Assembly (NCBI RefSeq): GCF_963506605.1
Contig: NC_083283.1
Coordinates: 83,824,001-83,888,000 of the forward strand
Direction of reading: 5' to 3'
Source: Zootoca vivipara
Taxonomy: Eukaryota
Length of the DNA: 64,000 nucleotides
Below, one piece after another: positions 33,333-58,099 of this stretch. A program made the position numbers and the translations under genes. The notes beneath the pieces were generated by a model that ran no database searches, was not told the DNA's origin, and saw only the letters and a list, made by a program, of their open reading frames with translations. How positions within the stretch are numbered: the first letter of the stretch is position 1; every line of letters begins with the position of its first letter.

Positions 33333-35197
33333 AAATTTAAAAATGCAATTCTTGCAATATTTGTTTGGGCTTTTTTTTGTTTTCTGGTGTTCTTTATTCT
33401 TCTAGTGTTCTTATGCTTCTTTAAATGTATGTGAAGATAGTCATATTTATCATTGTAAGCATTTGACATAAGATTTGTGTGTATGTGGATATATAATTAC
33501 TCCTGTGTGGCAGCAGTTTTTTAGGATCGCATTCCTGCCTTTGAGAATTTCCATTCTTAAAAGTTTATGTTGTACAAATGTGGGTATGTTTTCATTCATG
33601 TTAAAGAAAGATGATTCACTTTAACAGTGGGGAAGAAAGTGGGGGTAGAGATGAAAGAAAAATGGGAAATGTGAGAAAGAGAAGCACTATGGTCATGATA
33701 GACCAAGTGGAACATTGTTACATTCCAAAAAGATAATAGCATGAGAGCCAATAATCACAGGCTCCCCAAACTACTGAAGACGATACAGTGGGTGTACCTT
33801 TTCTTCACTGTTCTTATTTACATACTTTTGTGCCATACTGCTTCTGAGCACAAATGATTCTATGATTCTATCTTTTCCTTTATTCTTCAGGTGGATACAC
33901 TAACAGTATGAGAACACACTTTATTTGTGCATTATGCGGCGTCCCATTTGGGTATGTGCTGTGTCAAGAATCTGTATAATATACAAATAAGATTCATGGA
34001 TCTAAGATCTCTTGTGAACGGAGATATCCCTCCTGTTTGTGTTTCACTGTTTTAGACCATGCAAATGATATGCTAAAGGCTAGTAATTTGAATTGCTACC
34101 TCTTGAATGGTGTGCTAATGAATTTGTTGCTGTTTTCATTCTGTTTGCTCTGCCAGTGTCTGGCCTGGGCTTCAAGAACAGTAAAACGTAATTGTGGTTG
34201 CCAGTTTGTGAGTGATGTGGTTGAGCATGTTCAGACATTGATGTTATCACATATTGCTTTGTTCTGGTTTTGGGGATCTGCACATATCCATTGGCAGAAG
34301 AGCTTTGCTTTTCTCCTACAACCATGTAAAGATCCTTCAGCCTTCTCATTCATGCTTTGCTGCTCCATAGGCTAAAGTTCCTTCTTTGTCTTCCATGTGA
34401 TGGCAAGGGGCAACCACTGATGTGCGTGAACACAACCCTGTGTTTGAAAGTAGTTTGACTTTGATTCATCCCAGGAAACATCTTAGATCCACAACCAAGT
34501 CAAGAAATCATTTGAGAATTTGCTTGCTAATGAATTTGTCAGTCAGTTCTAATCTCAGAAAGATTTTTAAAATCAAGTTTAGGGGTGGTAGGTTCTTCAG
34601 TCTTGGGAGAGTCCTGGATGCCTTTTGCTTGCCTACCTGCCTGCTTGCACAACATGCTATTGCAAAGAAGTTTGCTTATGGTACTTCCTACATATCTTCC
34701 ATAGCGCTGGGTATTCATCTTGAGTTAGACGCTATGAGGCACATCTCTTGCAAACATGGAGAGTTTGTGTGTTTAATGAGAATGTTGCTATTGCCTTCTT
34801 GCATGATTTGCATAATTACTACAATATTATTTCAAACAGCAATGCTGCCCAATATCTTTAAATCTCTTTTCCTGATCAAAGCCCATGGCATTCTGCAAAG
34901 CTCAGTGTATTCTTTGATTTCCTGGTCAGAGCTCAAAATATTCTGCATGACTATATATTCAAGTAACATGTTTTATAATAAGCAGAAATTATTCCATCAA
35001 GTTGTGTTCTGTGCTGGAATTCCCTGACCCATGTGGCTAATTTATAACCAAGGCTATATATTACTCTTCTACCACCAAGAGAATGAACAAACAGATTAAA
35101 CATTGAAATCATGCTATTATATCCAAGTGAGTATTTGAAACATACTCCCAAGACAGGTACATCACAGGACAAACTGAAATGAATAATAGAGACTCAC

Positions 35198-37567
35198 CTG
35201 CCCAGATGAATTAGGGACCACCTCCGTCATAATCCCTACATCCCCATTCTCTGCAAAGAAAGGAATGTTGGGGCTGAAAACCATGAGATCACTTTTGGCT
35301 CCAGCCTCTCCACTCATTCCTGCCAAAATGTGGCTATGGCGATTTGAGTAAGACCAACTGCCCACTTCGCTTGCACACACCAGCGTGGCTGTGCCGGGAC
35401 CATACGCCATGGTCTCCTCTGCTTGCCTCTGGAATCGCTGAGCCACATATAAGATGACTGCAAGCAGGAACAAGCTGGACACTGAGCAGATGGCAATGAT
35501 TAGGTAGATGTTGACCTTGTCCACCAGGGGTCCTGAACTACCTCCCATCCTGGGAAGATGGACATCATCATGGAACATCTGGGTGTTTGCCACCAAGGAC
35601 ACACTCAATGTAGTTGTAACGGATCGCGGTGGCTTCCCATGGTCCTTCACCAACACCAGCAAACTATGGCTGCTGCTGCCCTCTACATCATTCAGGGCAC
35701 GTCTGGTACTTATCTCACCACTGTACAGTCCCACTTGCCAGGGTCCACTGGTCAATTCATGCAGCTCATAGCGTAGCCATGCATTGTAGCCTGAGTCAGC
35801 ATCTAGGGCATGGATCTTGCTCACTAAGTGGCCAGCCATGACAGGGATCGCCAGCTTGACAGGGGCCTCCCCTTGTCCAGATACTGTTGGGTCGTTGTCA
35901 TTGTCATCCACCACAAACACCTGCACTGTCACATTGCTGCACAAAGAGGGCAGCCCAGCATCCTTGGCTCTCACCTGGAATTCCAGCAACTTCATCTCCT
36001 CATAGTCTAAGGACTGCAGTGCATAGATCTTGCCGCTTTCTGAGTGCACCGAGATGTAGCTTGACAGAGACCAGAGCTTCTCATCAAGCCAATAGCTGAC
36101 TAGGGCGTTCTCAGCCATGTCTGGATCTGAGGCAGACATTGTAAAGATATGGGCACCAGGTGGATTATTCTCCTTCACAAAGACTGTATAGAATGGCTGA
36201 GCAAAAGCAGGTGCATTGTCATTCACATCACTAATGGGCACCACTAGGCTGCTACTTGCTGATAGTGAGGGAGCCCCTTGATCCTGGGCCACAACCACCA
36301 GTCCATACTCAGCCACCTGCTCTCGATCCACAAGTTCAGCTAGCACTAGTGAGTAGTAATTTTTGAAGGTGGGCACCAGCTTGAATGGAAGCCCAGTGGG
36401 CCACAGAAAGCAGCTCACTTGCCCATTGGATCCGGAATCCCTGTCTGAGATGCTGATCAGGGCTACCACTGCCCCTGGCGAGGAGTCTTCAGGCAATGGC
36501 ACTAGCATGGACTTCAATGACATCTCGGGAGCATTGTCATTTACATCTAAAATTTCAATAAGGATAGTGCAGTGCCCAGACAAAGGTGGGCTACCTCCAT
36601 CTTTTGCCTCAATTTCAACATTATACATATTAATATCTTCAAAATCCACTTTCCCTTTTACCCTGATCTCACCTGTATCCGACTGTATACTAAATATATT
36701 GGAAGGAACATTATTACTGAAGGAGTAGGTGATTTCCTTATTACTTCCTTCATCTAAGTCTGTTGCATTGAGATGAATAACCAATGTTCCATCTGCCACA
36801 TTTTCTAACAATTTCACTTTATAAACAGATTGGTTAAATACAGGTGCATTGTCATTTGCATCCATCACAGTGATCTCAAGATGGACTGTGCCTGTGAGTT
36901 CTGGTTGACCCCCATCAGTAGCTGTTAGCACTAAATGGTGCACAGGGATTTTCTCTCTGTCCAGAGGTTTATTTAAAACAAGTACCAATGACACACTCTG
37001 CTGGTCATTTATTTTTTCTTCAACAACAAAATATTCTGTGGAATTAAGCTTGTACTTGAGTTGAGCATTAACACCAACATCTGCATCCGAGGCTCCCTTC
37101 AGAGGAAAACGTGTACCAGGCAACATTAATTCTGCAACACTGAGGGACTGTTTACTTTCCAAGAAAACAGGAGAATTGTCATTTATGTCCTTGATTTCCA
37201 CCTCTACATGGAAGACCCTCAGAGGCTTGTCCACAATCACCTCCAGGTGAACAGGGCACAAAGGGCTCTTGTTACACAGCACCTCCCTGTCTATCCGGGA
37301 ATTAACAAATAAAATCCCATTCTGGACATTTACCTCAAAAGAGTCCCCATGATCTTCAGACTCCATCCGGAACATACGAGGCATGAGCTCCTCCACCTCC
37401 AGCCCCAGATCCTGGGCAATGCGGCCCACGAAGGTGCCATGCTGGGATTCTTCAGGCACGGAATAATGGAGCTGGCCGCTCCCCATCAACCAGACTGTGT
37501 GAAGCAAAATCAGCTGCAGCAGCTTCCTTCTCCCCACTGAGGAAGAGTCTCCCCATAGAGCAACCAT
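35198..37567 (-). CDS. PCDHA: Protocadherin-alpha variable exon (790 codons); most 5' intact alpha exon in the window
   Basis: Full architecture; donor CAG|GTGAGT at 35198/35197; no further intact exon seen in the 26 kb upstream. Confidence 0.97.
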
Positions 37568-37761
37568 CTCAGAAATATTTCATATAACTCCCCTCTTTTA
37601 TGAAATATCTCTGGGGGGGGGACATTGAAAGAATCTAAATCCAGCCTGCTGATATACCTTTTCTTCCTCCAATTATAAGAACGGGAATGATCTCTGGTGA
37701 TGACAAAGCAGTGGAAGAGCCTTTTGTTCCCCTTTCATTCGCAGCAAGTTACTTAAGCAGA

Positions 37762-37779
37762 GAGCGACATCATGCGACT
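37762..37779 (-). promoter_or_regulatory. CSE / promoter CTCF site
   Basis: Minus strand AGTCGCATGATGTCGCTC, ~195 bp upstream of the ATG. Confidence 0.85.
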
Positions 37780-38094
37780 AGATGGGAAAGTACAGTAGAT
37801 GTTTATATTGTGTGTAGCTTTGGAGAACGTTTGATGCCATCAACTTGTTTAGTAAAATTAAAATCATGTTCAAATGAATGATAAACAAGATGTTGTTGTT
37901 GTTGTTGAAAATGATTTAATACTGTATATTCAAAATGTATATTTTCCTTTGCCGGTGAATATGGCTGGTTAAATACACTTGCCCCATCATTGAAAGTTTC
38001 CATCTTTTATACCAACATATGACACATGTTGGCACCGCTAGCATCTTTCACTGCTTGGAGATCAGGGTGTGCATAACAATATTGTCCTGTATTT

Positions 38095-38500
38095 GGGAGG
38101 GCCTAGAGTAGCTGTCATAGAGCACCTGCTCTGCATGCAGAAGGTGCCAGATTCAATCTGCAGCATCTCCAGAAAGGGCTGGGAACGGCCCCTGTCTAGA
38201 ACCCTAGAGAATCACTGCCAGTGAGCTACAGTAGATGGATTACAGGTAGGTAGCTGTGTTGGTCTGCTGTAGTCGAAACAAAATTAAATAATTCCTTCCA
38301 GTAGCACCTTTTGTTGTTGTTTAGTCGTTTAGTCGTGTCCGACTCTTCGTGACCCCATGGACCATAGCACGCCAGGCACTCCTGTCTTGCACCTTAGAGA
38401 CCAACTAAGTTTGTTATTGGTATGAGCTTTCATGTGCATGCACATGTCTTCAGATTGTTGGGACTAATTCAGTTATAAGCAATTTCCTGTGGTCCTATGA
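38095..38500. mobile_element. Nested repeats: tRNA-SINE > Penelope 3' fragment (38243-38455, minus) > BovB tail (~38311-38388, minus)
   Basis: The Penelope part matches the reverse complement of 53977-54117; the BovB part matches the reverse complement of ~17365-17444 and is flanked by a gcacctt duplication. Confidence 0.8.
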
Positions 38501-39099
38501 CCTATGAAACACATTTATTATTTTTCTTCCCAGCAGTTCTGGAGCTTCCTTGAGTGAAGAACTGATATTCTGATATTCCATGCCTCTTTCTATTAGGATT
38601 TCCAATAGTTATTTAGGAATGCTATATGGCATTTCAGGATAATGACATATTTCTGCATTGTGGTTGCCAGGACAGAACACAGCTATAGTGCATATTTACC
38701 TTATTTCATTACATTTGTATTTCTCCCTTCATTGCACAGAATTTTTGCCTTTAAAGAAAGAGAGATGCAGAGTGGAGCTGGCCATGCTGCTTTAGGCAAT
38801 GTTACCAGTTAGAGGCTTATTTAAGAAGGCTGTGCTTTTGCCACCTCTTATGAAGTGAAGTTTTAACCTGCCCACTCATCCCACTGTTGGTAGAGCTGGA
38901 CTAGCTGGTTTCCATTTGGGGCAGTTTTGAAGTTCCCATTTCACATTTGCCAGAGGAAGAGCTCTTTTGCACAGCTTAGCTCTGGCAGGCAGATGAGTGG
39001 TTCAGACAGACATTCCAGTATTTCCAGGTAGTTTTAGGTCTCTTATTTCTTCTGAAGTCTCGCTGGGCAAATCAATAAGTTTTGACCTGGTGCTGAATG

Positions 39100-40875
39100 A
39101 CTGCAACATTGGCACCAGTCCCATGCCTACTTTTCTCAAGTCAAGGAAGAAAGACTGCTAAGGAAAAGAGCAGTTATCAGCATCACTTTATCTAAAGGCC
39201 AGTTCTTCTAGGCTTGCAGTTCCATGAGGCTGTTTATTATTATTTTCTTCTTCATGGTCACCTGCTCTCCGTAATTGGCTCATACGCATTACCTCGCTTT
39301 GAGAGCACATAGCTAGAATTCCTTGATCAATGACTCCAACAACCACATGAACAAAATATGAACTTCATGGCGGAGCAGGAATTGGATCTAAGGCTGAGAG
39401 CAGATTGCAGGTTTTTTTTACAGAGATGTGAAGATAATATGATAGAACCATGAACATGTTCATGTGGACCATTCCCTGGTAAGAGCCCAGATGAAAAGTC
39501 AGAATGTTGTCCCTCGTGCGGAAGATGGCAGCTTAAATCCTCGTTATGGTCATGAGATTGCAATAGATGTTGGATTCCATGTCTGAAAGGGACACAAGCC
39601 CCCATTGGAAATCTTTTGCCCAGTGCCTTTATCTGAAAGTGTATACTGTATCTTCAAGTTCCAGATTGGTAGCCATGTTCTGATATTCAACTAATATATG
39701 AATGGCAACTTTCAGAAACCAAGGTGAGAACACTTTCCTAGGACATTCTGCTGCTCATCTTAAAGTTTCCATTTTTCAACAAAATAATTTTAAGGGCTGG
39801 CTCCAATGTGAAATTGCTGAAATGAATGTCTTACTAAGCCAATCTTAGTAATCACTTCATCCTGCCATTCTCCACAGTATCTCCATATTATCAGACCTAC
39901 AACGCTCCCAACAAAGACTAACTCCACACATTTATTAGAAATGAGATGTTGATCCCATTGAGCATTTTCCTTCACCTTGTTCATCTTTAGGCACACCACC
40001 AAGGACCTTTGTGGATAATTCCCATTGTGTGCTCTGCGTCCAGTATGAATTGTTTTCATTCTTCAAAATCCAGAGCACCTTCCACCTTTACACCTGCAGA
40101 AGTCTAGTCTACTAGAAATAATGATTAACAAATCTCATTGCATTGTTGATCTCCCAATCACTTCCATGTTCTTTGTCCAGATCTGCTGTGTTGATCAGAT
40201 TTATGACTACGCCTTTACCAAAGTTCCCAAGTAAACTGAAGATATTCCAGTCAAGCCCAGGAGTGTTCTCACTGGAATGCAGTGCCATAATGTGCCAGAC
40301 TTTTGGGAAGACCTGACACCTCTTACTATTTACTGAAAACTTCAAATGGTATCTTTCTTTGTCTAACAACTTTTCAAAAGCTAAAAATAGGATATTATTC
40401 TGTCCACCACAGTGTTCTACCTTCTTATTTGTTTATTCTTTTTAACAATTTGCAAATGAGGCACTCACTATTACCAATTCAGTTCTGAGAAGCAATATCT
40501 CTTTTAGAGGGAAACTGTGTGACTTTATCATCAATACTGAGGATTTCTATATCCAGATAATACAATGCAAGAAGATTTTCAATCCGAAGCTCAAATTTTA
40601 GTACTTAACTTACTGTCTGACCACACAGTTCCTCTGTTGTCCACTATCATGCACTAAGCTGCAAATCCAGATGTTTTCTCAAATCCAGATGTTTTCTTGC
40701 ATTTAATAACACAATAGGCAGGCTGTCATCTGTTTCTGGGATCCTCTTCTGCAATGGACTCACTGGCAATACAGGGCTCCAAATCCTCTGGGATCCAGCA
40801 GCAAGCTTCTCTGGCTAGAGAGACGCACACTATGGCAATGCACAGAAAACCGAATGGCAGCCATAAGCCCGACAT
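39100..40875 (-). pseudogene. Highly decayed protocadherin variable exon of non-alpha (beta/gamma/delta/C-like) type
   Basis: Collinear cadherin remnants across frameshifts: MSGLWLPFGFLCIAIVCVSLA..WIPEDLE; EELCGQTVS*VLKFELRIENLLALYYLDIEILSIDDKVTQFP; YPIFSF/EKLLDKE; KSGT; ENTP..GKGVVINLINTADLD; KVEGALDFEE; GSVVGLI...FHIGASP*NYF; VSLSDMES; PP*SSYFVHVVVGVIDQ. The 3' limit is uncertain. Confidence 0.85.
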
Positions 40876-41119
40876 ATTAGGTTGCCTGGTGTTTTGTAGC
40901 AATAGAAAAACAGAGTTTTGCAGTATAATAATTTCCTTCTTCTGCAGCTGGTTCAGCTAGCACTACGCTCTTGCTATTTCTGTCTCTAGCTATCCATCAG
41001 AACGGCACTCAAATTCTATGAAAATACAATCGTTTCGCTCTTCTTTCAGCTTGAATTCTGAGCCATTAAAAGATTCCCTTTGCCAGAGTGGCTGGTTCTT
41101 CCTTTCCAGTCGTGGACAA

Positions 41120-41137
41120 CAGCAACACCTAGCGTCT
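41120..41137 (-). promoter_or_regulatory. CSE-like CTCF site of the relic exon
   Basis: Minus strand AGACGCTAGGTGTTGCTG(TTGTCCA), 245 bp upstream of the relic ATG, same orientation as the other CSEs. Confidence 0.7.
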
Positions 41138-42192
41138 AGATCACTGCTGTGCTCCAAATACTGCAAACAGTGATGCTCAATGTCGCTTAGGTGATGTCAC
41201 GGGTTACAGGCTACTGAGAATGAGCAACAATATGCTCTGGCGTCATAATCTATGAACTACTTTTACAAACATCTATCCTGGGTTTATTAATAACCAGCTT
41301 ATATAATCATTATTCTATATAGAGTGAGTGCCTTGCACCTCCACCTCCCCTACTTTTTAAGTTTTCCCCTTTGCCTTTGGTAACTCTCAGTAATGCTCTG
41401 ATGTAGTGGGCTCATGTGTTAGGGCTTTCACTGTGGGACAATCTTGTACTAAAGTATGCTAAAGGTGCCATCAAGAACTCTTTTTGTTCAACGCAAGTTA
41501 TGCTCCTTAATTCACCAAAGCTGCATATATTATGTGTAGAAATGATCTGATTTCATATTTTGTGGCTGGATAAATTATATATGAATTTTTTTTATTATAT
41601 CCTGTAAACACATTTAAATGTATTATCTCTAGAATTATGATGTATTTTAAAAAGTCAATATGCCCAAATGGAACACATTTTTTAATATTTTGCATGGGGG
41701 TGATCCTGCATATATCGTTGGCATTGTTCTTTGGTGCATTGTCCTTTTATTATTATTTAGAAGATTATTTAAATCCAATTATATATTTACAAAACGTATT
41801 CAGATATGATGCACATTGAGACAAAATTGTAGCCTGGTGTATTGATTGATGGTGTCTGACTGGCGCTGGCCTGGAAAGAGATCTTGCAGTCATGACTGAT
41901 AGCTCAATGAAAACAGAAACTCTACGTGTGGCCGGGGTTAAAAACAGTAAGGCAGATTCCATGCTAGAATTAGGAAAGGGATTGAAAATACATCTATAGC
42001 AGGGCAATGTCTGGAATATTGGTCAACCCTAATCCATCACAAAGAAGGAATAAGCTTCAGGACAAAAATACCGAAGTCTCGAATGGTACACCAACTAGTA
42101 ATACTTTTTATTTTAGAGGAAAAGATGACCCAAGGTAGGCATGACAGAAGTTTACAAAATCATGTAAGATTTTTTTTTAAAAAAAGGAGGTA

Positions 42193-42433
42193 CAGTGGTA
42201 CCTTGGTTTACAAACTTAATCCGTTCCAGAAGTCCGTTCTTAAACCAAAGCCGTTCTTAAACCGAGGCGTGCTTTCCCTAATGAGGCCTCCCGTCGTCGT
42301 TGCCCTTCCACTGTTCAGCTTCCGTTCGTAGACCAAGGTAAAGTTCGCTAACCGGGACACTACTTCTGGTTTTGCGGAGTTCGTATACCGAATAGTTCGT
42401 AAACAGGGCTGTTCTTAAACCAAGGTACCACTG
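42193..42433. mobile_element. Tc1/mariner MITE
   Basis: TIR cagtggtaccttggttta / taaaccaaggtaccactg with TA on both sides. Confidence 0.92.
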
Positions 42434-42606
42434 TAAAGCTATTTTTTCTCCCTCTCCCATAATGCTGAAACTCAGGCTTGCCCAGTGCCATAGCTTGAAG
42501 AAGGTGGAGGAAGGGATACTTTCCAAACAATTCATAATTTATGAAATTATGAAATTTATGACATTTGCTGCGAGATGCGATATTGGCCACTTGAAGCTGG
42601 GTTATA

Positions 42607-45426: not shown

Positions 45427-46304
45427 TAGGGCTGCCACCTGTCCTTTAAAATAAAGGTTTGTTATGTCTGAGGGGCACAGAGTCCCTTGTTTCGTTTGGA
45501 ATGCCTTTTGTTACGTTTTTGAAGACATAAAAAATAAAATTTGTGCACTCACCCTAGTTTGCTTGTCTTGCGCTGCCTAGTTTGCTAGGCACTTCGGCAG
45601 TTGAACCCGCCCTCCAAAGCTGGCTGATTGACGCTCCAGGCTAGCCAATAGAGCTCGCCAGCCAGCAGGCTCTTCCGGGTTGGGCAGAGCAATTTCCAAT
45701 GGCTCTAGAAGGAGCAAGACGTTTCCCGGAGCAGCAGCTTCTGCTTGCAAAGCTCAGTCTCCCTCTGCCCGTCTCTCTGTGTGTGTTTAAGGATCTCTTG
45801 GTTTATTCCCCCCCCCTCAAGAATGGATAGCGTGGAGGCTGCAAAGGAGGGCTTCTTCCATTTAGAGTTCTGTTGCTGAAATTGAAGGGTAGTAGAAAAA
45901 GTTTAATAAATACTGTGATCATCCATCCATCTCTAGGCATTAAAGCATCATAACCTTCATATATTGGAGTTCTCAGAGGGGATGAAAGGTTAGGTTAATC
46001 CTGTTAGGATGTTGGAGGCAAAGCTATGTGAGGAAAAGATGCAGAATTTGTTGCTATCTCTCTCCGCTTACCCCTTTCTTCTTCTTTGGCTGGGTTTCTA
46101 CATTTACCATCCTTCTGGCAGGCAGAAATTCAGCAGGTGGAGACATTTCCTTTCAATATTGTTGGAATCTTTGCAGTTACCAATAGCTTCCATTTGATCA
46201 TTGTAATGGATTGCTTTGAAGTCATTTCTGCACTAGGGCATTTTTAGCCCACCAGTTCCCTCCCAACCTGTCCTTATTTTGCCCGATCAAAGGTGGCAAC
46301 CCCA
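45427..46304. mobile_element. Non-autonomous hAT DNA transposon, 878 bp
   Basis: TIR tagggctgccacc / ggtggcaacccca; 8-bp TSD ggatcctc; the RTE sequence resumes on both sides. Confidence 0.85.
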
Positions 46305-48402
46305 GGATCCTCCCATCTTCCATTCTGTGCACATGACCAAGCCAGCATAGACATTGCTGAGATAGGAGTGCGAACATACTGGGAATGTGGGCTTGGGAGA
46401 GCACATCTTTGTTTGGGACTCTTTCCTGCCATTTGATGCCCAACTCTGCTTGGTGCAGTGCATGTTGAAAGCGTTGAAGCATAGCTCCTGGCGGTTGCAA
46501 GATGTCCATGATTAGCTTCCATAAAGTGGTGTGCTCAACACACAAGCCTGGTAGACCTTCATCTTTGTATTGGCCATTGGCATCCCATTCTCCCATATCT
46601 TTATGGAGAGGTGAGCCATTGCTATAGCTGCCTTGCCAATACTGTATGCTTGTCCAGCTCCATCTATAGAGAGGTTGCTGGTTATGGTGGAGCACAGGTA
46701 GACAAAATCATCCACCACCTCAAGCATGTGGCTCCTGGTGCATGGAGTGCTGGTGACCAGAGTGTTGGCCTTTTGTCAGGCTGATTATATGACATCATTA
46801 TGACATCAGGTGTGAGGCTGCCAAAAAGGGTTTTGCAGGCACTACCAGTCGCCTAAATCGTGCCTGTAAAACCCTCCACAAGATAGCACTTTGAAAGGGG
46901 CTTCACCAGCAATATATTGCACAGCTGGTTGTTGGGTCTTCGGAAACCCTTTTAAAAGACTGCACAGGAGAGTGTTTTGAAATAGTCTTGCACAGCCCTG
47001 GCTGTCAGGTCTTCAGAAGTCTCTTTCAAAGTGTCATGTGCTATGGGATTTCAGATTTCTGATGTCATTGTGACATTGGATGTTTCACAGGTGGACCATC
47101 CTGACTGAGACTGTTGGGAGTTGTAGTCCAAGACATCTGGAGGGCAACAAGCTGGTGAAGTCAGTTACTACTACATTGGTCTCTCAGGCTACAAGGAACA
47201 TAACTGCATATTGTAATGTAAGCCTAAAATAGGAAATCTGGAAGCTACGACCACCACCCCTTTCCAAGAAAACATTGCCTTTTATGTGTCAAAATTTATC
47301 AGCAATCTCAAGTCTCTGCATGGAATTTGTGACAACTGAAAATAAGACCAGTTATCCGGGGCTGGAGGAGTTCAAAACCCTACTTTATTATTATGCAACA
47401 TTTACTGACTGCCAGAACTGAGTGGAGCTCAGTGATTATCTAATGGATTTACAAACTGTACAAAACGGATGGGACAAAATATCTAGTGGGATTGCTGCTA
47501 TGCTCCCAAGGAATTTCAAGTTCATGCTCCATTAGGCATATTTACAACTACTTTGGGCATGATATGAATGCAGAAAGTACAGAAACCACAAGTCTTAGTT
47601 GCCAAAGGAACAACAGAAGAGCCTATTTCCTACTCAAAACCCTTGAAGGGAGAAAAAAATAGTTGGGTGAGGAAGGGAAGGATCAAAATATTTTTACATG
47701 CAATAAGATCCAGTCAAACCCACCCAAAAAAGAGGAGATTTTTTTCCATAGAGGGGAAAGGGTGATAACTTCCACCTTTGTGCCTGCTACAATGCTAACA
47801 ACAATTAATTATTATTATTATTATTAGTCTTAGTATTTATGTCCTGCCTTATCCCCAGACCAGGACACAAGTCAGATTACAAATAAAATAAAAAGGCTAA
47901 AGACATAGCAGAGTTAGTCATTGAAAAATAACTAAACACTAAAAGAATTAAAGCAATATAAAAAGATATATTTTAAAATACAAAGAACTAGAAGAAACAA
48001 AACAAAACATAGCACTAGCCCTTTCCAGTCAGTTCACTGCCATCAAGGAGGGAGCCAGTCGAACTTCTCCAGGGAGAGAGTTCCAATGTCTGGGTCTGGG
48101 AGATGCCACTGACCTGCATCTCCACCAAGCAGGCCTGTGAGGGCGGCAGAACTGAGAGAAAGGCCTCACCCCCAAAGATCTCAGAACCCAGGCAGGTTCA
48201 TATAAGGGAATATGCTATTTCAGATAGCTTGGACCTAAGCAGTGCTATTTTTCTACAAAAAGAGGTGCCGGAACTCACCATGAATACCTCCCTTGTTCTC
48301 TTATAATGGCAATGGCACCCACCTGAGAGTTGTCGGAACTGAGTTCCGGTGAGTTCCAGCTGGGGGAAAAAGCTGTGCACCTAAGCCACGTAGGGCTTTA
48401 TT

Positions 48403-49489
48403 TATTATTTTATTTTATTTTTTATTAAAGACTAATTGTACCCAGCCATGCGTTGCTGTGGCTCAGTCAGGGCCCCCATTTCCCAGGACAGGCACATGAC
48501 ATAATGACACCCCTCTGTCTGTTACCCCCCCGGTGCGTGACATCATCTTCCCCCACGTGATGTCACACTCCACCCCAACCCCTCTCCCCCCTCGCATACT
48601 GTATGCAAATTTTGGGGAGGGCCTGGCTGCTTCCTCCAGCGGATCCCGACGGGCAAGGGGGCAGACAGCCCAGCTGCAATTTCTTTGTGAAGACGGACAT
48701 GCCATGGGCGGGGAGGAGAGGAGAGGCCCTGGCTGCAAAGGGACAGGATCCGGCCCCCGGTCTCCCAGAAGGAGCCGCCGGCCACCCGCTCCCAGTACCT
48801 CTGCGTGCTCATGCTGGAAGGATGCCACCATGCACCCCAAGGCATCCTGGGAGTAAAAAATTTACTATAGTGTGTGTTCCTTTGACGTCCAACAGATGGC
48901 GCTATTTTTCCAAAAAAGCATGTTTTCACCTGTCACAGGTGTGACATCTATAAAATCTAATTATATACAAACACTCCCATAATTGAATGCAACGTTGTGT
49001 CAAAATTTCAAAGCAATCGATCAAGAACTTTCTGAGATTTTTGATTTTGTGCAAACAGACATTTATATTTTTATTTATATAGATTTCTTGATTTACAAAA
49101 GTCTCTCTCATATTTTTTCCACGTATCATTTTTACAAATCAGTTTCATTTGTTGAGACATTTGTAAGAAAAGGGGGAGAGAGGTGGACAGGAAGGGGGTG
49201 GGTGGGGTGGGGTGACAATGTTTCTATTTTACTTAATATACGTAGGTATGTAGGGTTTGATGTCAGCATTACTTGTGCAGGTTGTTCGTTTGTGTTCCCT
49301 TGGTGGTGAGAGAGGTTGGGGTTGGCCTATTGTTCATTTGTGGTTGGTTGTGGTGGTCTTTGTTATTGTTTTCAGGCGTGAGAGGGATGGGTGTTTTGGA
49401 TGAGATTAGCCATATTGATTCGTATGCTGTTGGTGGATTTTTGTCATTATCTTGTTGGGCTGTGTATGTGATAAAAGGGAGCCATACCG
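48403..49489 (-). mobile_element. 5'-truncated retroposon 3' end with A-rich tail (hosts a Helitron)
   Basis: 15-bp direct repeat acgtagggctttatt at 48388-48402 and 49490-49504; T-rich tail on the left side. Confidence 0.7.
48432..49083 (-). mobile_element. Non-autonomous Helitron
   Basis: Minus-strand 5' end TCTATATAAATAAAAAT; subterminal hairpin (agcca...tggct); ends TTAG (CTAG variant); inserted at A|T with no TSD. Confidence 0.8.
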
Positions 49490-52842: not shown

Positions 52843-53120
52843 CTTCCAAACTACTCTCTTTCTAACTGTGGAGAATGTGAAAAATATATAAAACACCAAT
52901 GCCTTCCCTAAGCAGGAGTAAGTGACATTAATCTCCCCTGCACATAAAAGGGGTGTTTCCCTCCCACAGAGCTCAATATACATTTTGTTCCATTCATAAA
53001 TCAGGCCTTAGGCCAAGCAATGGCTTTATCCCCACTTCTGAGGTTGTTTGCCTGTTCATTTGGGCTGGGAGGGAAACTCACAAGAGAAGGACCTTAAAGA
53101 CCAACTAAGTTTTTATTTTG

Positions 53121-53158
53121 GTATGAGCTTTCGTGTGCATGCACACTTCTTCAGATAC
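53121..53158 (-). ncRNA. Mirror copy of the hammerhead ribozyme
   Basis: Exact reverse complement of 53975-54012. Confidence 0.8.
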
Positions 53159-53974
53159 AGTGAAATGGAAGTTTCCAGGCACTTATGTAGAGAAGGGGTG
53201 GGGATGGGGAGGGGAGGGGGGATCACTCAGAAGGGTGGTGGAAATGGGTGATTGACTGACTGATAGCTGTTGATGACCGCAATCGACTGCAAATGGTTTT
53301 GCATGAAAAAGCAAGGGTTGAGATGGCTGAAGATCGCTTATCATGTATAATGAGATAAGAACCCGATATCTCTGTTCAAACCAGGTCCCTCCATGGTTTT
53401 GAGCTTGGTGATAAGTTGCAATTCAGCAACTTCTCTTTCCAGTCTATTTCTGAAATTCTTTTGTAGTAAGACAGCTACTTTGAGATCTTGTATAGAATGT
53501 CCTGGGAGATTGAAGTGTTCTCCTACTGGTTTTTCTGTCTTCTGGTTCCTGATGTCAGATTTATGGACATAAATCTGACATCAGGAACCAGAAGACAGAA
53601 AAACCAGTAGGAGAACACTTCAATCTCCCAGGACATTCTATACAAGATCTCAAAGTAGCTGTCTTACTACAAAAGAATTTCAGAAATAGACTGGAAAGAG
53701 AAGTTGCTGAATTGCAACTTATCACCAAGCTCAAAACCATGGAGGGACCTGGTTTGAACAGAGATATCGGGTTCTTATCTCATTATACATGATAAGCGAT
53801 CTTCAGCCATCTCAACCCTTGCTTTTTCATGCAAAACCATTTGCAGTCGATTGCGGTCATCAACAGCTATCAGTCAGTCAATCACCCATTTCCACCACCC
53901 TTCTGAGTGATCCCCCCTCCCCTCCCCATCCCCACCCCTTCTCTACATAAGTGCCTGGAAACTTCCATTTCACT

Positions 53975-54012
53975 GTATCTGAAGAAGTGTGCATGCACAC
54001 GAAAGCTCATAC
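53975..54012 (+). ncRNA. Minimal type-I hammerhead ribozyme in the Penelope terminal repeat
   Basis: GTAT-CTGAAGA-A-GTGTGC/AT/GCACAC-GAAA-GC-TC-ATAC: CUGANGA and GAAA cores, stems I and II, and a palindromic AGCT mini stem III. Confidence 0.8.
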
Positions 54013-55601
54013 CAAAATAAAAACTTAGTTGGTCTTTAAGGTGCTACTGAAGGAATTTTTTTTATTATTATTATTTTTTATTTTACTTCGATCCAGACCA
54101 ACACGGCTACCTACCTGTCACAAGAGAAGGGACTGGATTGGTCCAGTCATGGGGGAGAATGAATTCCTTCTTTTCCAGTTCATGTTTGGGGTTGATGGGG
54201 TGCCAACAAACACTAGAGGGTGTCATACAGACTAGCTCAGCCATAGCTAGTGGAATTCTAAAGTGGAGTTGAGCCTGCACCAACATGACTAAATTGCATA
54301 TTTACTTGTTTATCGGTTATTACCTAGGCTTATCTAACAGGGTTGCAAAATAATGACACTGAGGACATTTTTCAGCACACTTTCCCAAGCCATGCTGCCT
54401 ACTGGGGAGAGAAAGCAAAGGGAAATTAAAGTAGTTCATCACAAGAACTGTCATCTTCCTTGATAATTAGACCTTCCTTGGCAAACTCCAAAGGTGAGGT
54501 CAGAAAGGGGATGAATAAAGAGATTCAACAGAGCCCCATTTGAGAAGCCCAAGGGGAAGAAGGGGTTGCTTTGTGTGAGTAAAGGTTATTTTCTCCAGGT
54601 CAGGAATTTATTCGAGCTGGACAATGAGATTTGAGACTGCAAGATGGCTCATAGGGAACCTTTGCTTTCACCAGCATTGTATTAAATATTAACGAACAGA
54701 GTAGGATTTCCCATCTTCTACACATATTACAATATAAAAGAGAGTACCTGCAAGGCTTTTATTTACCCTCCTGAATAAACCAAAGATGTTTCACAGAGGG
54801 ATGCTATGTAAATGACTTTATCTTGGAAAATAATCCCACATGGGAAATTTGCTTTGTGGGAAACCTCAATATCTTCTTAATGTTTTACATCTTTGAAGAG
54901 CATGTTTAATATTGTTGCATAGGCAGTTAAAATAAGAGTTTGACTTCGGGTTTTTTGTGTGTTTTTTTGTAAAAGCTGGGTACAAATATTTGTTGAAGGT
55001 TCCTTCTAGAATATATTACTAGTGCATAGAAGTGGTTGTGGCTCAAGGCTGCAAAGAGCACAGATGTGTTTTCAGAGGCATACCTAGGGATTGGTGAAAC
55101 CAGCCTACTAGGAGTGCAGGCCTGGGGAGGGCACAAAAATCACCCCAGAAATCTGTCTCCAGGTTGTGAGTTTAGACAAGAGCTGGGAGCTGAGCGGTAG
55201 AAGAAATGGCAAAGTGGTATGAAGGCAAACTGCTGGAGACTTTGGAGTCTGTGAAGTATATTGGTACATTTTTGTATTAAATATCGGGCGGGAAGGAGCA
55301 GATATCAGTGGAATTAGACAGGACAGCCTACTGGAGAGAGGATACTGTCCAGGGATGAAGAGTGGTGGAGATCATGGTAAGCTTTCCACAATGTGTGCTG
55401 TTGTCTTGGCTCTTGTTACAGGTACCATCCTGATCGTCCAAGAAACTGCCTACATGATGGTGCTCCCAGGGATGACGATGCTCTATGGCTCCCTTATCAT
55501 GTCCACAACAACCTGCAAAGTCATTTCAAACATGAACACATGAACTTCCTGAAACTTATAAACTCCCATACTCTCAGAATAATGTTGTCTATTATAATAT
55601 A

Positions 55602-57237: not shown

Positions 57238-58099
57238 GGTACTCTCAATTTAAATGCAACTATACTTTCTAGTACTGCAGAGCTTGGCATTGTTAAAATC
57301 AGTCTGAAATGAATTTGCAGGTGCAGTTTCCCTAGCATCTCAGAACTGAACTAGCTTAATTGGAGGTAAGCCTCATTGATTTTAGTGAAAGCTGTTCCTC
57401 CAAAAAAGTGAATTTAGGAAGCACAAGCCCCGGGAGTTTCCATTCCTTCAGTGACACACTGCCAGGGAATAATTTGTCTTGATTTGATGAGGCAAGGATG
57501 ACATCTAGTGTCTATGTAGATTTATGTTGCAAATACATTTATCAGCACACAAATCAAAGTAGGGTGGGGAAAACAAAAATGAGCTTTGTAATTCCAAGGC
57601 TCCATAAAAAAAAAATAGTACCACTTGCCAACTTCAAAATTATGATGGATATGAATGTTCATATGAGATAGGAAAATCACAATAAAAGGAATGTAAAATG
57701 GTCTACATAAAGGTTTTCTCCTGCAGAAATATGGAAGTGGCAGGAGCAACACCCACAGACCTTCAGAGAAGCAGCTGCCTACAGTGAGCCTTTACCATTT
57801 TTGGGGTGGATAAGTAAATCATAAAGCAAATCATTATATCAAAAAGAAAAAAACGCTATCTAAAATCGCATAGAAAAGTTTTGTGCTCTACAGCACCATC
57901 TGGTGTTGCATGTTTATAATACATCCAAAACACTGGTTGTTTTTTACTAATGTAGCCGAGTCCTTGATCTGTAGTCTTCTGCACCCATTTTTCTACCAGC
58001 TCCATTTCCTATTGCACATATGCTCATGAGAGCATAAAGTCCCAGATTATAACCTTTTAGGAAAGTGTGCACATCATGTCATCCAGATGAGATGCACAG

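Follow-up and report, generated by a model that had tools for sequence, protein, structure and literature searches.

A long-dead protocadherin variable exon with a well-kept promoter element at the 5' end of the alpha array of Zootoca vivipara

We identified the relic of a clustered-protocadherin (Pcdh) variable exon on the minus strand of the Zootoca vivipara genome (1.44 Gb), in a window of 64,000 nucleotides (NC_083283.1:83,824,001-83,888,000; positions given without an accession are those of this window, the whole stretch of DNA that was analysed). It is a real and old pseudo-exon of a known kind, and is unusual in that our sample holds no living parent class for it and that its promoter CSE probably outlived the gene. 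Judging from its sequence features, we see an even chance that this is a long-dead variable exon from the alpha array's 5' end, with its coding part decayed and its CSE likely to have been kept by selection as a predicted CTCF loop anchor or insulator.

Results

A single minus-strand array around the relic holds 73 of the 82 PF08266 matches. The 71 long cluster exons recovered from 60 stretches comprise one delta, 12 alternate alpha, alphaC1, alphaC2, 15 beta, 13 gammaA, 23 gammaB and five gammaC exons, and the cluster matches the delta-alpha-beta-gamma order of the anole cluster, as given in the portion of PMC2764143 available to us. The delta gene is intact and has its own constant exons (NC_083283.1:83,913,441-83,921,207). 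The last of these lies about 48 kb upstream of the relic, so that by position the relic opens the alpha array; its downstream neighbour, the intact alpha1 variable exon (35162..37579, minus strand; CSE at 37780-37757), is 3.3 kb away. Apart from three short matches of 73-76% elsewhere in the genome, the relic stretch is single-copy. An assembly artefact was ruled out by 10 sequencing runs of the species itself and 10 of five other species, which contain all or part of the stretch, together with long contigs of four species.

Several other features were observed in and around the cluster. Two young broken exons on the minus strand, a beta and a gammaB (NC_083283.1:83,611,256 and 83,321,888), retain open frames of 213 and 533 aa. 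Retroelement-like ORFs include a pair inside the gamma array (NC_083283.1:83,460,061-83,464,166), which we take to be LTR-retrotransposon-like, and fragments upstream of alpha (NC_083283.1:83,893,258-83,895,036; window 46222-46707), which are presumably LINE-like. A perfect 481-bp inverted repeat with a 2-base loop at 53085-54048 may be a fold-back of the assembly or have arisen by very recent duplication, and CCAAT-, GC- and ETS-like boxes are clustered at about 45600-45710, promoter-like and with no annotated gene.

Frameshift-aware alignment, which the preliminary description of this DNA had proposed as a check, placed the cadherin homology of the relic far above chance. Against a clustered-protocadherin profile made from the genome's own exons, the relic scored 120, compared with 34.3±3.4 (maximum 44) for 60 shuffles and 38 for the opposite strand, and its codon-level forward score was 177 bits (46-54 for eight shuffles). 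In a scan of 62 tiles of 3 kb, from 37601 to 68 kb past the end of the window, scores of at least 48 were found only in the relic and delta tiles. Pfam hmmscan assigned five single-frame translations of the relic to 0 families, so that stock HMMs miss it, and plain tblastn with six alpha exons returned fragments only (best E 0.003). The cadherin HMM check that had also been proposed was negative with Pfam and highly significant with the cluster-specific, frameshift-aware profile.

On the minus strand, an ATG at 40875 opens only 49 codons, closed by a stop, which contain a signal-peptide-like stretch and the start of EC1 (40729..40875; 0/100 shuffles as high, z 6.6). The decayed end of EC1 and EC2 follow at 40262..40728, where frameshifts and stops have accumulated and about 60-70 bp are deleted, and then the decayed EC3 and the start of EC4 at 39780..40261, with a z of 26 for the segment from the end of EC1 to EC3 and of 4.2 for EC4 (0/100 shuffles as high). 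A probable EC5-EC6 remnant occupies 39050..39779. EC5 alone was equalled by 7/100 shuffles in the first window, EC5 plus EC6 by 1/200 in windows that were moved after the alignment was seen, and the TM/cytoplasmic part by 5/200 in windows picked post hoc; the 3' part of the relic (EC5-EC6 and tail) is a weak signal. The collinear signal peptide and EC1 to EC5 that had been read from minus-strand fragments could thus be retained from the signal peptide to the start of EC4, with EC5 weak. An 18-bp perfect tandem duplication detected by TRF at 40662..40697 is private to Z. vivipara, and is missing in the contigs of 4/4 other species.

The relic is a pseudogene. Its three minus-strand frames contain 39, 43 and 23 stops in 39000-40875, and the longest open stretch is 108 aa, in agreement with the earlier claim that no long ORF is present; the open reading frame of about 800 codons that is usual in variable exons is absent. 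Pattern searches found no AG|GTRAG-type splice donor in 38300-39400 and no NRSE-like match in 37600-42500. The relic nevertheless shares with clustered-Pcdh variable exons a signal peptide and EC repeats that are collinear in one exon, and a tandem, same-strand place in the cluster. Among the residues that had been quoted as diagnostic, IPE, L.FEL.IENLL.LY, LDKE and KSGT can be found in the translations, and 'YP before LDKE' needs an extra frameshift that was taken by 0/7 consensus alignments. Taken singly, most of the diagnostic residues would differ by one base change, which makes them weak markers at the relic's level of decay.

We compared the relic DNA with class profiles under a neutral-decay model, in which each score is relative to the family average and the reference profiles are non-squamate. 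The panel contained 198 EC1-EC4 units from sharks, teleosts, coelacanth, lungfish, frogs, turtles, a crocodilian, birds, mammals and squamates, after the removal of nine giant-cadherin or unplaced rows from 207 before scoring. The relic scored -24 bits on alpha, -35 on delta, -17 on coelacanth alpha, -13 on shark and -7 on gammaC, which is the best single class; it scored -30 on beta, -44 on gammaA and -35 on gammaB, of which only the gammaA fit is calibrated by simulation. Simulated decayed lizard alpha exons scored against bird and mammal alpha alone gave +7 to +38 in 24/24 cases, and under a different mutation model 0/48 were as low as the relic. A dead copy of an amniote alternate-alpha exon was rejected by this calibrated decay test (0/72 simulated copies as low for both models together), as were copies of delta and gammaA, whose control simulations gave +19 to +47 and +3 to +42. 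Beta and gammaB appear to fit the relic poorly, and gammaC may still fit, the relic's score standing against -3 to +34 in eight simulations. Pairwise scores and single-sequence nhmmer did not separate the classes.

Scored domain by domain on alpha, EC1 of the relic gave -14.8, against +6.3±3.7 in the alpha simulations (0/48 as low). EC2, EC3 and EC4 gave +3.0, -0.6 and -2.0, between the alpha and the c-type simulations (decayed c-type/delta: -3 to -12), and an alpha DNA profile matched EC3 at 14.9 bits; EC2-EC4 alone were also below the alpha simulations, 1/48 of which was as low. These scores suggest an EC1 of ancestral appearance and EC2-EC4 that lean towards alpha. The claim that the relic did not arise by copying and death of one of the neighbouring alpha exons was supported. 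The beta/gamma-like reading was not, as the beta, gammaA and gammaB profiles fit worse than alpha, and a delta reading fared no better, since the delta profile also fits worse than alpha and the cluster has an intact delta, complete with constant exons, at a place further upstream. 'Non-alpha' proved too strong a term: EC1 is clearly non-alpha, but the relic heads the alpha array, carries an alpha-type CSE and has alpha-leaning EC2-EC4.

No intact ortholog of the relic was found among 308 EC1-EC4 units (198 + 110; best scores -2 and +5.5 bits), an absence that holds for close orthologs only, as an ortholog at about 52% identity would escape detection; in a positive control, true orthologs with 76-84% identity reached +25 to +90 bits. 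Among the homolog matches listed (150 representative ones, swamped by giant cadherins, and 120 + 120 in two more searches) none stood out, and a word-seeded search with the EC1-end fragment gave four candidates and no match, which is weak evidence. The EC-repeat phylogeny that had been suggested gave a divided answer: in free quick trees the relic formed a long branch outside alpha, but the AU test, with trees that lack power, kept every placement, including nesting inside lizard alpha (p 0.36) and grouping either with amniote alpha (p 0.53) or with delta (p 0.56). We found no published description of the relic in the clustered-Pcdh literature, including the accessible portions of PMC4978886, PMC3333863, PMC4151104 and PMC2926608, and the anole map may mark a pseudogene there. 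From the class profiles we conclude that the relic appears to represent an old lineage of the alpha array and not a crown alpha copy. Its ancestor may have belonged to an old lineage at the 5' end of the alpha cluster (stem-alpha or c-type-like), for which the coelacanth Lm-alpha2-10 group is a positional candidate.

Long contigs of four other species cover the relic with 3.8-5.5% difference (pooled 4.7%, about 95% identity), and alpha1 coding pieces differ from those of the same four relatives by 1.6-2.5%. The relic body now diverges at about the intergenic rate, i.e., about neutrally. At 104 family-invariant columns its decay is about 0.46 substitutions per site, a noisy estimate with which true values of about 0.35-0.6 are compatible, and the total score suggests about 0.6; the decay is about 0.45-0.6 substitutions per site, and the preliminary description was right to call the relic old. 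Per-lineage divergence from the four relatives is about 0.023, and the decay of the relic is about 20-25 times larger. Its death would then be roughly 20-25 times older than the split of Z. vivipara from these relatives and may be Mesozoic or older.

The CSE of the relic, a CTCF-type, alpha-like motif detected by PWM, lies at 41115..41138 on the minus strand. It is 240 bp from the ATG, close to the 245 bp previously given for a CTCF/CSE-like site, and clustered-Pcdh genes have a CSE about 200-250 bp before the ATG. The site scores 20.8 bits on a PWM of the 12 alpha promoters (11.2-30.9 for intact alpha in leave-one-out; 0/2000 shuffles), 8.9 bits on a beta PWM and 14.1 bits on a gamma PWM, and its distance to the start of EC1, 344 bp, is within the 285-362 bp of the 12 alpha exons. 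No site scores higher with a class-balanced matrix in the 97 kb that extend from alpha1 past delta. The claim that the CSE is better preserved than the coding part is supported by neutral-decay simulations (4000 draws, decay 0.45-0.65), in which so good a score was kept in 0.1-2.2% of draws; this became 0.8-7% with a best-case consensus start, and chance survival rises to 2-9% at a decay of only 0.3.

The CGCT box of the relic CSE reads TGCT, and the CpG at motif position 2 is kept. As the resulting TTGCT box is seen in 0/64 intact promoters, CTCF binding may be weak. A T at the first C of the box occurs in 12/15 beta CSEs, and never with a preceding T in the 64 intact promoters. According to the accessible portion of PMC8084297, methylation at motif position 2 blocks CTCF binding and methylation at position 12 barely affects it. 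A T at position 12 may likewise be tolerated by CTCF. In the beta promoters (NC_083283.1, 83.53-83.62 Mb), the CGCT box is kept in 0/15 CSEs.

The promoter region of the relic (40890..41240, minus strand) is mildly CpG-rich, with 8 CpG over its 351 bp (o/e 0.50), compared with 12 over the 1801 bp of the relic body (Poisson p 0.003) and 2-6 in the 12 alpha promoters; 19/122 background tiles, many of them repeat-rich, have as many. Beyond the CSE, the promoter DNA of the relic matched no intact promoter above shuffles. The relic contains no recognisable exonic CTCF site, the homologous stretch being degraded with a best core match of three mismatches. In the lizard alpha exons, the FPLEG codons of EC2 (e.g., window 13063, minus strand) form a candidate exonic CTCF site, within two mismatches of what we take to be the core motif in 6/12 exons; it was seen in 0/51 beta, gammaA and gammaB exons.

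Further forward-oriented CSE/CTCF-like sites (minus strand, 13-19 bits) can be found at 57491-57514 and about 57886-57909, with others beyond the window at NC_083283.1 about 83,889,161 and 83,892,791. With same-orientation sites upstream of it, the relic need not be the 'most distal loop anchor' that it had been proposed to be, and because these sites lie between delta and the relic its CSE may be redundant. No cadherin signal of a second relic was found behind the CSE-like site at 57514. Two matches to what we assume to be the near-canonical CTCF core, reverse to the cluster at 48889 and 62872 (plus strand), are candidates for a delta/alpha boundary or a delta enhancer anchor.

Discussion

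In mammals, forward promoter CTCF sites loop to a downstream enhancer, each site insulates upstream genes, and tandem sites balance promoter choice (PMC7087399, PMC7811963, in the portions available to us). If the CSE of this dead exon has been kept by selection, as we favour, CTCF would bind the forward-oriented relic site 3.3 kb upstream of alpha1 and the site would give the tandem array, which faces the downstream alpha enhancer, one more stop. In this way it would insulate delta from the alpha enhancer and help to set alpha1's share of enhancer contacts, with no protein made.

Would the same observations arise without any present function? It is somewhat unlikely, in our judgement, that the same old dead exon is wholly neutral, with a CSE that persisted by chance, or whose constraint was relaxed recently, and that is now functionless. 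Such an account would sit well with the TTGCT box, the loss of the exonic CTCF site, a decay estimate noisy enough for 0.35-0.6 to be plausible, and flanking promoter DNA with no homology above shuffles; however, it has to accommodate a survival probability of about 2% or less at a decay of at least 0.45, a CSE score inside the intact alpha range at the right spacing, and the CpG excess over the relic body. In one species, moreover, the promoter-holding piece has diverged less than the other pieces (54/1436 vs 96/1615, p 0.006). The promoter could instead act as a decoy, still chosen like an alpha promoter and yielding a sterile transcript that silences one allele's choice; an alpha-type CSE, intact spacing, the ATG and the CpG excess would all be expected of it. 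The relic, however, has neither the exonic CTCF site seen in half of the lizard alpha exons nor a consensus splice donor. In mammals, an antisense promoter located at the exonic site is required for alpha choice (10.1101/360206, as far as its accessible portion goes), and we regard a decoy as improbable. The combination of a good promoter site with a 49-codon ORF, and with neither an exonic site nor a consensus donor, would be easier to reconcile with a passive role as anchor or insulator than with that of a chosen decoy.

There is also a slight chance that the relic decayed from a copy of some living class, be it a crown alpha exon whose EC1 was converted or a gammaC-type exon that is out of place. 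The EC1 score far below every alpha simulation, the low score of EC2-EC4 on their own, and the failure of any single lizard or turtle gammaC exon to score as an ortholog all argue against such a copy, and outweigh for us the alpha lean of EC2-EC4, the alpha DNA match to EC3, the position of gammaC as best single class and AU tests that reject no placement. A more specific form of the old-lineage reading, which we hold to be rather unlikely, is that the relic may be the last amniote trace of an Lm-alpha2-10-like 5' alpha lineage thought to have been lost before reptiles. This lineage would have persisted among the ancestors of reptiles for a long time after they split from the coelacanth, with only its putative CTCF site kept by selection as a delta/alpha boundary, a pure architectural element.

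Relic exons in Pcdh clusters are already known; this one preserves a paralog lineage with no living member in the sample. The lineage reading would call for a revision of the idea that such 5' alpha lineages had disappeared before reptiles. The relic also offers a natural test of the tandem-CTCF model, as a promoter site with neither a gene behind it nor an exonic partner site, and if this site is bound and constrained, cluster architecture alone can preserve a CSE for a very long time.

Relic or pseudogene variable exons have been described in the human clusters (PMC7766791), and 14 pseudogenes in anole (PMC2764143), in the portions of these papers available to us. Like these, the Z. vivipara relic is decayed, tandem, on the same strand and inside the cluster, but its age is far greater (decay about 0.5), no living class was found to be its parent, and its CSE is well kept. 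With amniote alternate Pcdh-alpha exons it shares a place in the alpha array, an alpha-type CSE and spacing, and the alpha lean of EC2-EC4, and it differs from them in an EC1 without the alpha signature and in having no exonic CTCF site and no reading frame. The clustered Pcdh-delta of non-mammals resembles it in lying upstream of alpha and in an ancestral-looking EC1, whereas in Z. vivipara an intact delta with constant exons exists separately and the relic scores -35 bits on the delta profile. The coelacanth alpha exons in our comparison (4-5, apparently the 3' ones by order and tree) fit the relic no better than the family average. Coelacanth Lm-alpha2-10, in the slot directly after delta, is reported to have disappeared from reptiles and mammals (PMC2764143), and together with the teleost 5' alpha groups Ib/Id has been grouped with cluster-end, delta/c-type-related genes (PMC1852091), according to the accessible portions of both papers. 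The relic lies in the same slot as these coelacanth and teleost genes, directly after delta.
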